A DNA stretch of 13,115 nucleotides from Deltaproteobacteria bacterium (GCA_043741455.1 JAYUBH010000817.1:1-13115), one strand, 5' to 3'; numbered from the stretch's first letter, positions 1-3,699 are shown. Numbers and translations are program-made. The notes: generated from the letters alone by a model not told the origin.

Positions 1-520
1 CGAGCAGCGCGGCGAGGAACGCCCGTCGCGCGTCGTCGTCGGCGGACAGCGTGAAGAGCTCCTCGAGCTGGTCCACGACGATGATCAGCCGACGGCCACC
101 GCGCGCCGCGTGCCGGCGCAGCGCCTCACCGAACTCGGCCGGTGCTTCACCGAGGCCCGTCACGATCTCGGTGATGCGCCCGGGATCGAGGTCGCCCTCC
201 ACCAGCACCTGCGCGAGGCTCTGCAGTGGCGCGCGCCCCGGCCGCAGCACGCGCACATCGGTTCGCTCGTTGCGCGCACGCAGCGCGGGCACGATCCCGG
301 CATGGACGAACGATGACTTCCCGACGCCGGTCGGGCCGATGACCACGAGGAGGGGCCAGTCGTCGAGCTTTGCGAGCGCGGTCCGGACCTCCGCCGAGCG
401 GCCGAAGAACACCCGCGCATCGGCCTCGCCGAACGCGGCGAGCCCACGATACGGTGATTCGTCGTCAGTGGCGCCCGGAGCGAGGACCGCGAGCAGCGCG
501 GCGAGGAGCTCCGAGGCCGA
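1..520 (-). other. STAND/AAA-like P-loop NTPase domain of the kinase fusion; partial, continues beyond the window.
   Basis: Translation shows the PYRGL..F...DA..FFGR motif followed by Walker A GPTGVGKSS and Walker B hhhhDQLEE. Confidence 0.7.
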
Positions 521-1375
521 GCCGTAGCGCTCCGCCTTGTTCTTTCGCAGGCAGCGATCGACGATCTGCACGAGCGCCGGTGGCAGCGCCGGTGCCTTCG
601 TCGCGATGCTCGGTAGCGGCGTCTCGAGATCGAGGAGCCGAGCCCGCAGCTTCTCCGCCGCGCCGGTGCCCGCCGGATGCGCGTTGGTGAGTGCCTGCCA
701 GAACATGATCCCGATCGCCCAGACGTCGGTGGCGTGGTCGACCTCGTCCGCGCCCCACTGCTCGGGCGACATGTACGGCAGCGTGCCGACGATCCAGCCA
801 CCGGAGAACGTCACGGAGGTGATGGCCTTGCCGAAGTCAACCTCGCCTTCGAGCACGGCATCGCGGTCCGCGCGATCCGGGGTCGCCTCGAAGCACTTCG
901 CGACGCCGAAATCGAGGACCTTCACCGTCCCCCGCGCGGTCACGAGGATGTTCGATGGCTTGAGATCGCGGTGCACGATGCCGTGCTCGTGGGCGCGTTC
1001 GAGCGCGCGCACCACCGGCACCATCAACTCGACGAGCGCGAGCGGCGAGAGCGTGTCGCGCGCGAGGAGCTGCGTGAGCGTGTGGCCCTCGAGGTACTCG
1101 AGCACCATGAACGGCATGCCCTCGTGCTCGCCCACGTCGTGGATCGTCACGATGTTCTCGTGCAAGCACCGCGCGGTCGCGCGCGCCTCGATCTGGAAGC
1201 GCGCGACGAAGGCAGGGTCCTTGTCGAGGAGAAACTTGATCGCGACCTTGCGACCCAGCTTGGTGTCGCGCGCGAGATAGACCTGGCCCATGCCGCCGCG
1301 CGCGATCTCGCGGATCAGCGCGAACTGCCCGACGCGGGTGTTGGGCCCGACCTGTCGAGCTTCGGGCGTCGCCAC
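1..1375 (-). CDS. Ser/Thr protein kinase fused to a STAND-type P-loop NTPase domain. The 3' end / C-terminus is truncated by the window edge; the GTG start at 1375 is putative.
   Basis: I translated the minus strand by hand in the frame whose codon low coordinates are congruent to 2 mod 3. The N-terminus reads VATPEARQVGPNTRVGQFALIREIARGGMGQVYLARDTKLGRKVAIKFL (Gly-loop and VAIK Lys). HRDLKPSNIL, the catalytic loop, lies at about 946-972. Downstream are DFGVAK and the SPEQ (APE-like) motif. After about 280 aa comes PYRGLAAFGEADARVFFGRSAEV, then Walker A VVIGPTGVGKSS at about 311-337 and Walker B LIIVVDQLEEL at about 59-88. The frame is open all the way to position 1, so this ORF is absent from the ORF track (no stop inside the window). 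The in-frame stop TGA at 1397-1399 belongs to the upstream gene. Codon usage is strongly GC3-rich. Confidence 0.85.
   Translation of the reverse strand, partial: MATPEARQVGPNTRVGQFALIREIARGGMGQVYLARDTKLGRKVAIKFLLDKDPAFVARFQIEARATARCLHENIVTIHDVGEHEGMPFMVLEYLEGHTLTQLLARDTLSPLALVELMVPVVRALERAHEHGIVHRDLKPSNILVTARGTVKVLDFGVAKCFEATPDRADRDAVLEGEVDFGKAITSVTFSGGWIVGTLPYMSPEQWGADEVDHATDVWAIGIMFWQALTNAHPAGTGAAEKLRARLLDLETPLPSIATKAPALPPALVQIVDRCLRKNKAERYGSASELLAALLAVLAPGATDDESPYRGLAAFGEADARVFFGRSAEVRTALAKLDDWPLLVVIGPTGVGKSSFVHAGIVPALRARNERTDVRVLRPGRAPLQSLAQVLVEGDLDPGRITEIVTGLGEAPAEFGEALRRHAARGGRRLIIVVDQLEELFTLSADDDARRAFLAALL
535..1375 (-). other. Protein kinase catalytic domain (Hanks-type) of the kinase-NTPase fusion; boundaries approximate.
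   Basis: Hand translation gives GxGxxGxV, VAIK, HRDLKPSN, DFG and SPE motifs in the canonical order. Confidence 0.8.
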
Positions 1376-1396
1376 CGACCCGATGATAGCGCGAGA

Positions 1397-2222
1397 TCAC
1401 AAGGTGCCGGAGAACGACACGCCCGCACCTCCCTGCGTCGTCCATGGCGCGACCTCGTGCGTGGTCCGTCCACCGGTCACGTACCAGAGGAGCCCACCTG
1501 CGAGTGCTGCGACGCCCATGCCGGCGGAGACGAGCCCGACGTCGAACGTCTTCACTCCGCTCGTGGCCTTCGCGAACACCGGATCGCCGGGTGGCGCCGC
1601 GCACTGGTGATCGCCGAGCGAGCAAGCCGATGGCACCTCGTGCATGCCCCACGCGGCGATCGCGACGCCCGCGACCGCCAGGCCGACACCGACACCGATC
1701 GCGATCTTCGCTCCGGTCGGATGGCTGCGCGTCGCGACCGAGGTCGAGACCGCCGTTTGCCGCGCTGCCACCGAGGTGAAGGTCGCGACCACCGCGCGGC
1801 CCTGCTCGCCGGTACCGACCACGACGGTCACGATCTGCTCGCGCCCTCCGTTCGTGAAGCGCACGACGTGCTTGCCGGGGTCGACCTCGTGCGGCTTGCC
1901 GTCGTCGAGGCGCGTCGCGACGAGGCCGTCGTCGAGATAGACGGTCGTGTCCGGCAGATCCGCGCCAGCGCCATCGCGGGCCGCGAAGCTCAGCGATGGC
2001 TGCAGGCGCGCGAGATCGTCCGCGAAGCGCGCACAGTCGTTCTGCACGATCGCGGGACAGCCGGCCTGCGCGCACGACAGGAACAGCTTCTTCGCGAGCG
2101 TGAGCTGGCCACCGAGCTTCGCATCCTGGCCGCGGCTGTGCGCGTCCACGCACTGGTCCTTCGAGAGCTCGTCGGCGAAGGCCAGCGACGAGACGCACGA
2201 CAAAGCGATGAGGATCTTCATG
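1397..2222 (-). CDS. Secreted / membrane-anchored protein of unknown function. It has a signal peptide, a Cys-rich N-terminal segment, a beta-rich (possibly PEGA-like) periplasmic domain and two C-terminal TM helices.
   Basis: This is the C-terminal 275 aa of the track ORF 1397..3787(-); only this part has good GC3 codon usage. It begins at ATG 2222 (MKILIALSCVSSLAFA) with a GGAGA Shine-Dalgarno sequence 5 nt upstream. The stop TAG of the upstream gene lies 8 nt before the ATG. Hydrophobic segments are KIAIGVGVGLAVAGVAIAAWGM and LVSAGMGVAALAGGLLWYV. Four Cys sit in the first 60 mature residues (DQC..LSCAQAGC..NDC). Stop is TGA at 1397-1399. Confidence 0.7.
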
Positions 2223-2229
2223 CGATCTC

Positions 2230-3699
2230 CTATTCGAAGAACTGGATCGGGATGCCCGCGCTCCAGAAGTAGAGGTTCTTGAACGTGCCGTTGGGCTGGA
2301 TGCTCGTGCCCCACACGGAGCTCGAGTACTGGTGGTTCGTCGTCGCGAAGCCCGACGTCGCACCGATGCCGAGGCCGAGGTCCGGGAGCGCCTCGAACGT
2401 CTGGATCAGCGTCTCGGGCGTGAACGGGCCCCGATGCGCATCGAGACCGGCGATGAACACGCGCGCCGCGATGTAGCCCTCGAGCGAGGTGAACGATGGC
2501 GCGCTCCCCGACGTCGCGATCAGCTTGTTGTAGGCCATCACGACATCGCTCGTGTCGTTCTGATAGTTCGGCACGACCTGCGAGACCACGACGTCGGTCG
2601 TGAGCGGCAGGCCACCGACCGAGCCCGCGGCGACGAGGCGATCCGAGAGCGAGTTCGGGCCGACGAACGAGACGTTGCTGAAGTACAGCTTCAGCCGGGT
2701 CTCCTTGTTCAGCGTCGACTGGAGTCCGTCGAACTGCCACATTCTCAGGGCCTGGATGAACTGCGATCCCGCGCCGTAGGTGTCCGTCATCATCACGCCG
2801 ACGGTCACCGTTCCCGAGCCGGTGCCGAGCAGTTGACCGAGGTACGTCTGCGCGGACTGCGCGAGCGCGGGCACGCTGGTGTCGTCGTTGCGCACGTAGC
2901 GGAAGCGAATGATCGGATTCGTCGGGTCGACACCGCCGGGAAAGGCACCGATCACCTGCGTGTACCCGGCGACGAGCCCGTCGTAGCCGGCCTGACCGAA
3001 CGTGTCGTTCTGGTCGAACGAGATGATGTTGCGATAGTCGCTCACGCCCTTCTTCTTGAAGTACTCGATGGTGGCGCGTGCCTCCTGCGCGTAGCTCGCG
3101 CGCACGTTGAAGATGTACTTGCCGCACGCGCCGGCCTGGGTGTCGCGCAGGATCGTCGTCGCGCCGGTGAACGCACCGAAGAACAGCGTCCCCGACTCGA
3201 CCGCGACGGGCGCGGCACGCACCATGGTCGGCGTGCCGACGTTGCCGAGAAACGCGAGCACCGCGTTCGGGCCGCGGGTCAGCGCCGTCGTCGACACCGC
3301 CGCCGTTGTCGGGCAGCGCGGCGCGGCGGTACCCACCTGCACGTCGACGAGAGCGCGGGCATCGGCCTCGGCGAGCGTCGGCTGATAGGCATCGTCGCGG
3401 AAATCGAGCTGCAGCTTGCGACCGCGGATCCCGCCGCTCGCATTGCGCTCGTCGAACGCGAGGTTGATGCCGAGCTTCATCGCGGTGCCGAGCGCCTGGT
3501 TCGTCCCGCTGACCGGCGCGCTCTGGCCGATGACGAGTGTTGCATCGGCGGCGCCGACGCAAACCGGTTGATCCTCGCGCAGCTCGCACACGAGTCCACT
3601 GCCACAATCGCCGTCGACGGCGCACGGCTTGGCGTTGAACTCGGTGGAGCAACCTACGAGGGCGACGATCGCACTCGCGAAAACAGATCGAATCCCCAT
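2230..3699 (-). CDS. Lipoprotein, type-1 periplasmic binding protein (Leu/Ile/Val-binding / Peripla_BP_6-like ABC substrate-binding fold). Orphan: no permease or ATPase genes nearby.
   Basis: Track ORF 2230..3753(-), trimmed to the internal ATG at 3699. The upstream 18 codons have poor codon usage. A GAGGG lies about 9 nt upstream of this ATG. The lipobox is MGIRSVFASAIVALVGC. Next is a Cys-rich linker (CAVDGDCGSGLVCELREDQPVC). The PBP1 fold follows: LVIGQSAPVSGTNQALGTAMKLGINLAFDERNASGGIRGRKLQLDFRDD... plus a conserved C-terminal lobe. Stop is TAG at 2230-2232. Confidence 0.85.
   Translation of the reverse strand: MGIRSVFASAIVALVGCSTEFNAKPCAVDGDCGSGLVCELREDQPVCVGAADATLVIGQSAPVSGTNQALGTAMKLGINLAFDERNASGGIRGRKLQLDFRDDAYQPTLAEADARALVDVQVGTAAPRCPTTAAVSTTALTRGPNAVLAFLGNVGTPTMVRAAPVAVESGTLFFGAFTGATTILRDTQAGACGKYIFNVRASYAQEARATIEYFKKKGVSDYRNIISFDQNDTFGQAGYDGLVAGYTQVIGAFPGGVDPTNPIIRFRYVRNDDTSVPALAQSAQTYLGQLLGTGSGTVTVGVMMTDTYGAGSQFIQALRMWQFDGLQSTLNKETRLKLYFSNVSFVGPNSLSDRLVAAGSVGGLPLTTDVVVSQVVPNYQNDTSDVVMAYNKLIATSGSAPSFTSLEGYIAARVFIAGLDAHRGPFTPETLIQTFEALPDLGLGIGATSGFATTNHQYSSSVWGTSIQPNGTFKNLYFWSAGIPIQFFE

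Follow-up and report, generated by a model that had tools for sequence, protein, structure and literature searches.

Do a periplasmic binding protein, a membrane protein and a Ser/Thr kinase that are encoded side by side on one strand form a signalling receptor, and is the adjacent kinase the one that belongs to it? The question is raised by a 13,115-nt stretch of DNA from a member of the Deltaproteobacteria (GCA_043741455.1, JAYUBH010000817.1:1-13115), which was analysed at its full length and is called the window in the following. The left end of the window carries four minus-strand genes, which encode, in their order along the DNA, a Hanks-type kinase, a Cys-rich membrane protein with two transmembrane (TM) helices that we named mem (1397..2221), a type-1 periplasmic binding lipoprotein (PBP) and a lipoprotein with CxxCH motifs. 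In a preliminary description, PBP, mem and the kinase were taken for a receptor kinase split over three polypeptides, in which the PBP senses, mem relays and a soluble kinase-NTPase receives the signal. Our analysis leads to a different arrangement: on balance, PBP and mem probably belong together as the conserved core of a module for envelope sensing in Kofleriaceae, Haliangiales and Polyangiales, of which the window holds a derived version. Throughout, we infer function from gene linkage, domain content and structural models.

The PBP-mem pair is tightly linked across about 45 myxobacterial species. One genome per species was scanned, which gave 48 loci in which the PBP, kinase and mem genes were placed by tblastn. 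The canonical order PBP, membrane-anchored kinase, mem is found in 34 species-level loci of Kofleriaceae, Haliangiales and Minicystis rosea, the latter with a cultured representative and a complete genome (DSM 24000, L047). Two loci carry a RecQ gene between PBP and kinase, another two have RecQ, kinase and mem with no PBP in reach, three show kinase and mem and are cut at the contig edge, and six are uninformative; in five loci and in the window, PBP and mem are present with no kinase between them. In canonical loci whose tblastn alignment extends to the end of the gene, the apparent gaps are 9-107 nt between PBP and kinase and 12-105 nt between kinase and mem. Upstream sequence is sufficient for a judgement in 42 loci, and in 40 of these the PBP gene adjoins mem or the kinase. 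Because the flanking genes vary among loci, the linkage of PBP, kinase and mem appears to be selected and not just inherited synteny. In addition, a rough count of tblastn hits gives about ten further kinase genes in about 0.87 Mb of loci, so that a kinase as immediate neighbour would be uncommon by chance. A triplet without counterparts elsewhere would have spoken against the preliminary description, and the gene-neighbourhood search places PBP, kinase and mem together in these 34 loci. A predicted cooperation of the PBP with a Hanks-type kinase in general is thereby well supported by conservation. The idea of a signalling pathway assembled from separate parts stands for this general link between PBP, mem and a Hanks-type kinase, and not for the window's own three genes as a receptor. 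Literature searches returned no published description of the myxobacterial PBP-kinase-mem triad.

The canonical kinases comprise 550-590 aa with a cytoplasmic catalytic domain, one TM helix at about residue 400 and a linker rich in Pro and Ala. Thirty-eight of them (L003:8292-9986, L004:8260-9987 and those of 36 other loci) share the motif HRD[VI]SPQN, an intact DFG and a C-terminal Cys loop, and their extracytoplasmic C-terminal part carries the invariant motif CxPP[YF]Y[FY]xGxKK[IVL][FY]KxxC[LI].

The window represents a derived form of this arrangement. Compared with the 34 canonical loci and their variants, its PBP is 51-72% and its mem 42-58% identical, while the space between the two genes measures only 8 nt and contains no canonical HRDVSPQN kinase. 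The kinase that is encoded downstream of mem, which carries an nSTAND1 domain, resembles the canonical kinases in its catalytic domain only, where the identity is about 33-34%. Together with the contig L060, which overlaps window positions 1-2448 at 99.76%, and with the loci L002, L053, L054 and L055, the window forms one clade in which mem is 66-82% identical and the apparent PBP-mem gaps are 8-18 nt (12-18 nt in L002, L053, L054 and L055) with no kinase between. Downstream of mem, the window, L060 and L002 have the nSTAND1 kinase, L053 and L055 have a CMD-family protein and a histidine kinase, and L054 has nothing, the Rieske gene being directly next. The locus L041 also has no intervening kinase, yet its mem groups with the canonical loci, apart from the window clade. 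For this reason, the gene orders indicate that the kinase gene was lost from between PBP and mem at least twice. Judged by its neighbourhoods, the nSTAND1 kinase of the window is not a conserved partner of the PBP-mem pair, since no loci but the window, L060 and L002 have it beside the pair, and its paralogues occur in unrelated contexts. The notion of a kinase dedicated to PBP and mem finds no support in view of these paralogues and of the sister loci, in which its place is taken by the CMD protein and histidine kinase or is empty.

The three genes themselves are real. As the window has a G+C content of 68%, third-position GC was used to sort genes from spurious open reading frames (ORFs), and the values of 0.87-0.90 in the kinase, mem and PBP genes, all on the minus strand, are of the coding type. 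The PBP gene (2230..3699, 489 aa) starts with ATG at 3699 and ends with the TAG stop at 2232-2230. It is separated by 8 nt (2222..2229) from mem (274 aa), which extends from the ATG at 2221-2219 to the TGA stop at 1399-1397. Ahead of mem lies a Shine-Dalgarno-like GGAG (2230-2227), overlapping with the stop codon of PBP. After a spacer of 21 nt (1376..1396), which is the same in L060, the kinase gene begins with GTG at 1375 and is still open at base 1, the window edge (1..1375), so that 458 of 918 aa are encoded within it. Direct reading of the sequence thus bears out both spacer lengths, both stop codons and the kinase start given in the preliminary description, and moves the mem start by one base, from 2222 to 2221.

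On the minus strand, positions 1-4800 contain no terminator-like site, hence none lies between the PBP, mem and kinase genes, and the sole sigma-70-like promoter match on this strand (4530..4558; TTGTCA-17-TAGGAT, 9 of 12 positions, with 0.2 expected in shuffled sequence) is a consensus match directly upstream of the gene for the CxxCH lipoprotein (3845..4522, minus strand, 225 aa), which in turn lies 145 nt upstream of the PBP gene. One promoter-like match and the absence of a terminator-like site would be compatible with a transcription unit of up to four genes, CxxCH lipoprotein, PBP, mem and kinase, in which the gene for the CxxCH lipoprotein may be the first. The 21-nt gap without a terminator-like site implies that mem and the nSTAND1 kinase are co-transcribed, and the kinase is probably co-transcribed with the PBP-mem pair as a whole. 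A functional coupling of this kinase to PBP and mem is possible, though somewhat less likely than not.

What kind of protein is the window kinase? The fragment encoded in the window matches Pkinase (7e-43) and nSTAND1 (3.6e-39; PF20703, 135.9 bits for the cut copy against a cut-off of 27.1) in Pfam scans. The Hanks motifs IARGGMGQVY, VAIKF, HRDLKPSN, LDFGVA and MSPEQ are present, as is a Walker A motif, GPTGVGKS, in the nSTAND1 domain, and the full-length orthologue of L002 reaches 353.9 bits with nSTAND1 over profile positions 1-378 of 379. The window edge cuts the gene at residue 458; L060 carries the whole of it. Its product, P0272, has 918 aa, and 457 of 458 residues are the same as in the window fragment. 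After the complete nSTAND1 domain, P0272 continues with RRRVAK-IAALAAIVAIVALGIFGSALAFV, a hydrophobic helix of 23 residues, and then with about 150 aa that read as coiled coil. Because of this TM helix and coiled-coil tail, the window kinase is predicted to be a single-pass membrane protein and not a soluble one, contrary to the earlier statement, made from the cut gene, that it has neither a TM segment nor an extracytoplasmic domain of its own. The Pkinase-nSTAND1 family is very large (7240 hits) and includes thousands of Kofleriaceae proteins, and neither PBP nor mem was found beside the kinase gene at four other family members that we examined. PADLOC returned only generic kinase-domain matches (PD-T4-6, mad6) for both kinase types and none for PBP or mem, and so gives no evidence for a known defence system. 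Two nSTAND1-kinase paralogues (L057:7190-11803 and L059:3049-7779) lie in a conserved unit, between the genes for an extracytoplasmic function (ECF) sigma factor and for a protein of 320 aa; a 4-nt overlap joins the kinase stop to the start of the latter. The 320-aa protein has a signal peptide, a helical part, a beta-rich part, a TM helix, a Cys loop, a second TM helix and a Gly-rich tail. It resembles mem in this layout by eye only, and with an hhalign probability of 3% we did not use it as evidence for a mem homologue.

The membrane protein mem has no Pfam or NCBIfam family. From an alignment of 25 homologues and an AlphaFold2 (AF2) model (pLDDT 82.7), it is laid out as a cleavable signal peptide (residues 1-16), a three-helix domain with four invariant Cys (21-73), a transthyretin/PEGA-like beta-sandwich (76-147), the helix TM1 (169-195), a loop with the invariant C200 and C207 (196-213), the helix TM2 (214-249) and a C-terminal beta-hairpin after TM2. 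The family as a whole has six invariant Cys and the two long hydrophobic helices. More than 470 close homologues, all of 270-300 aa, come from Kofleriaceae and related metagenome-assembled genomes, and a profile search yields 7089 cluster representatives. The invariant residues are retained in loci without an intervening kinase. About 150 of the 274 residues are modelled as periplasmic, and under the signal-peptide reading the part facing the cytoplasm is a loop of only 18-34 residues; therefore, mem is more readily seen as a co-receptor than as a relay to a soluble kinase, for which the modelled geometry is unlikely. The relay function assigned to mem by the preliminary description is made unlikely by this topology and by the membrane anchor of the kinase itself. 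In the 25 homologues, the loop between the TM helices contains, besides C200 and C207, an invariant A-x-PGD motif and hardly any basic residue (0.04 Lys/Arg per sequence), and its flanks carry Lys/Arg. The profile search also returned a protein of 797 aa, P0125, that looks like a fusion of mem and PBP. We rejected it as Rosetta-stone evidence, because its junction keeps the signal peptide and lipobox of a PBP, which makes two adjacent genes read through the likelier explanation. P0125 nonetheless shows mem and PBP as neighbours in a lineage further away, with mem first, which reverses the order of all other loci.

The binding protein is of the type-1 fold and belongs to the Leu/Ile/Val-binding family, as had been recognised from the sequence before. 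It matches Peripla_BP_6 (1.2e-30, 107.8 bits against a cut-off of 31.7) and has no match to SBP_bac_3 in Pfam scans. The N-terminus consists of a lipobox, LVG-C17, and a four-Cys motif, which are followed by the two-lobe Peripla_BP_6 fold. The best solved relative is PDB 4kv7 from Rhodopirellula (5e-34), to which the AF2 model of the PBP (pLDDT 76) is matched by Foldseek with E 3e-22 and a TM-score of 0.84 on the target; after 4kv7, many LIV-binding and related PBPs, with the expected two-lobe alpha/beta fold, are among the matches. Orthologues of the PBP are 66-88% identical. The earlier observation that ATP-binding cassette (ABC) genes do not accompany the PBP proved correct on a larger scale. 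Neither permease nor ATPase genes of this type were detected in the window by Pfam scans, and ABC families are likewise absent from seven Pfam-annotated neighbourhoods of the PBP-mem pair. ABC genes immediately beyond the window edge would have suggested an ordinary transporter; on L060, the rest of the kinase gene is found there, followed by a convergent Rieske oxygenase gene. Within ±10 kb, an ABC-ATPase-like ORF occurs in only one of 56 related loci (0.87 Mb in total). These gene contents support the prediction that the PBP is an orphan as regards transport.

We propose that the PBP would bind a small periplasmic ligand and that the ligand-bound PBP would dock on the periplasmic face of a membrane complex of mem and kinase, where the docking face may be formed by the Cys-helical and beta-sandwich domains of mem and by the C-terminal loop of the kinase. 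Docking would alter the kinase output, and mem would be a scaffold or co-receptor and would not pass the signal to a soluble kinase. We prefer such an envelope sensor of mem and kinase because mem is modelled as mostly periplasmic, its cytoplasmic loop is short, and both kinase types have a TM helix and an extracytoplasmic element. In the lineage of the window, the canonical kinase would have been lost and a paralogue with the architecture Pkinase, nSTAND1, TM helix and coiled coil would have come to lie 21 nt downstream of mem. This nSTAND1 kinase may replace the lost kinase, touching mem via its TM helix and periplasmic coiled coil, or may be a mere neighbour.

How does this proposal compare with other explanations of the locus? 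The split receptor kinase as first proposed could claim the tight spacing of three genes on one strand, the retention of the arrangement in L002 and L060, and the precedent of GlnH-GlnX-PknG, which operates in such a way. Against it speak a TM helix and an extracytoplasmic tail in the kinase itself, the short cytoplasmic loop that the AF2 model and the signal-peptide reading leave to mem, the confinement of the trio to one sub-lineage with sister loci that do without the nSTAND1 kinase, and the occurrence of paralogues of this kinase without PBP or mem. We consider this version improbable. Still less probable, and in our view very doubtful, is a PBP that feeds a branched-chain amino acid or a similar solute to an ABC importer encoded elsewhere, with mem unrelated to it. 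Orphan genes of solute-binding proteins (SBPs) do exist, the fold is of the LivJ/LivK type and annotation pipelines call the orthologues 'ABC transporter substrate-binding protein', but 55 of 56 loci are free of ABC genes at ±10 kb and the PBP keeps its place beside mem or the kinase in nearly all loci despite varied flanks. Moreover, SBP genes whose products stimulate sensor kinases adjoin signalling genes (PMC8050422). The third explanation is coincidental adjacency, in which PBP and mem use a partner elsewhere or none and the nSTAND1 kinase is an independent gene in a variable slot, maybe part of a conflict or surveillance system of the STAND type, as such systems have been proposed in multicellular bacteria. 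The slot between mem and the Rieske gene is indeed variable, holding the nSTAND1 kinase in L002 and L060, the CMD protein with the histidine kinase in L055 and nothing in L054 while both flanks are syntenic; L053 also has the CMD protein and histidine kinase downstream of mem. The huge size of the Pkinase-nSTAND1 family and the definition of nSTAND1 in predicted counter-invader systems (PMC8195603) fit such a view as well. On the other side, the 21-nt gap implies co-transcription, a kinase is the normal partner of the pair in other loci, and a kinase as immediate neighbour is uncommon by the rough tblastn count. Coincidental adjacency is a real possibility, to which we give somewhat less than even credence.

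The envelope-sensor reading with mem and kinase has its own difficulties. At the position downstream of mem, the nSTAND1 kinase is absent from L053, L054 and L055, whose mem is 66-73% identical to that of the window, and paralogues 63-64% identical to the L002 kinase stand in unrelated neighbourhoods, two of them in the assembly of L002 itself. The canonical kinases have Ser where Hanks-type kinases carry the catalytic-loop Lys, and because of this replacement they may be weak, atypical or low-activity enzymes. The orientation of the mem loop is ambiguous: the signal peptide would place the Cys loop in the cytoplasm, whereas the invariant Cys pair and, by the positive-inside rule, the basic flanks speak for the outside. 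Among the structural neighbours of the PBP are proteins for amino acids, aromatic acids, fatty acids and urea, a range too broad for the fold to point to one ligand, and the PBP could additionally serve an ABC transporter encoded elsewhere. A further-reaching version of the envelope-sensor reading would regard PBP, mem and kinase as a second class of SBP-gated Hanks kinase receptors that spans Kofleriaceae, Haliangiales and Polyangiales, with mem as an obligatory co-receptor, with an output kinase that was swapped for a STAND-NTPase-fused kinase in the window lineage, and with a periplasmic ligand that would switch nSTAND1 oligomerisation. We mention this version as a speculation and hold it to be unlikely.

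Among described systems, GlnH-GlnX-PknG of Mycobacterium and Corynebacterium, in which an SBP stimulates Ser/Thr kinase signalling (PMC6069109, PMC9769921, PMC8050422), is the closest in outline. According to a review of 2021, it is the only characterised SBP-stimulated Ser/Thr kinase (PMC8050422). As in the window with its spacers of 8 and 21 nt, the gene of a solute-binding lipoprotein is clustered with those of an integral membrane protein and a Hanks-type Ser/Thr kinase, and the SBP acts as sensor without a transporter; the main substrate of PknG is an FHA-domain protein, and a gene for an FHA protein lies nearby in the window. In contrast, GlnH is of the SBP_bac_3 family and binds Asp/Glu, while the PBP of the window is of Peripla_BP_6. 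GlnX has four TM helices and two periplasmic four-helix bundles (PMC9769921), compared with the signal peptide, Cys-helical domain, beta-sandwich and two TM helices of mem. PknG is described to act on the cytosolic side of GlnX, with no anchor of its own, while both kinase types described here are single-pass proteins. Apart from the generic kinase domain, none of the components showed homology in sequence, and the phylum is a different one. Since SBP family, membrane-protein architecture and kinase type all differ, the window system is an analogue of GlnH-GlnX-PknG and not a member of it.

Kinases fused to ANF-receptor-like domains are documented in Nostoc PCC 7120 (PMC1262709), which supports the premise of the preliminary description that PBP1/ANF-receptor-like domains occur fused to Ser/Thr kinases. 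These fused receptors likewise couple a type-1 PBP module to a Hanks-type kinase across the membrane. Unlike the system described here, they are one polypeptide, whereas our PBP is a lipoprotein on its own and is always accompanied by a third component, a conserved membrane protein. In SBP-dependent sensor histidine kinases such as TorT-TorS, LuxP-LuxQ and others (PMC8050422), a free PBP attaches to the periplasmic portion of a signalling protein in the membrane, and the SBP gene is found beside signalling and not transporter genes, similar to what we propose for the PBP. Their output is a histidine kinase instead of a Hanks-type kinase, and a third component like mem is missing; in L053 and L055, the CMD protein and a histidine kinase come after the PBP-mem pair. 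Finally, the window kinase is a full member of the Pkinase-nSTAND1 proteins, with Pkinase followed by nSTAND1. It differs from them in context, as nSTAND1 was named in predicted counter-invader systems (PMC8195603) and the four other members that we examined adjoin neither PBP nor mem.

The remaining genes of the window provide the surroundings of the module. In the CxxCH lipoprotein, a linker rich in Gly, Ser and Ala is combined with a conserved domain of about 115 aa at the C-terminus, which contains the two CxxCH motifs; the match to Cytochrome_C7 is weak (0.0055), and the protein is possibly a dihaem c-type cytochrome. Its gene adjoins PBP in every locus without an intervening kinase, though inverted in L041, and one canonical locus, L019, has it there as well. 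Divergent from the CxxCH lipoprotein, PBP and mem genes, positions 4559-5677 of the plus strand encode a protein of 372 aa with a C-terminal FHA domain (2.5e-7), which is conserved in L002, L053 and L054, with or without the nSTAND1 kinase. FHA domains bind phospho-Thr, and for this reason the FHA protein could be a downstream component of the kinase pathway. The next plus-strand gene (5721-8066) encodes 781 aa with MVP_shoulder (2e-26) and Vault_3 (4.5e-9) domains and a long Ala/Glu-rich stretch resembling coiled coil, and by these matches would be a bacterial vault-protein-like gene. A 95% identical copy was detected by tblastn in L002, and the gene is absent from the neighbourhoods of L053 and L054. 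An alpha/beta-hydrolase ORF (8078-8878) follows. The right part of the window (8996-13115, plus strand) contains a hybrid histidine kinase (REC-PAS-HisKA-HATPase-REC), a single-domain response regulator and a REC-REC-GAF-PAS protein that is cut by the window end; the full-length orthologues of the latter in L002 and L053 go on with HisKA, HATPase_c and another REC. This histidine-kinase cluster is syntenic in L002 and L053.

In conclusion, the stimuli of bacterial Hanks-type kinases are largely an open question, and myxobacteria have many such kinases, few of them with known inputs. The loci without an intervening kinase, the window included, are natural experiments on the exchangeability of the kinase partner. 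If PBP, mem and kinase were a second class of SBP-gated receptors with an exchanged kinase in the window lineage, a periplasmic small molecule would switch an nSTAND1 module, a type of input not described for bacterial STAND proteins in the literature that we searched. An operon of PBP, kinase and mem that is present in dozens of species is a concrete candidate, open to experimental test, for a ligand-gated kinase pathway in this phylum, and the envelope-sensing role proposed here would, if true, assign a function to mem and thereby to a large unannotated protein family.

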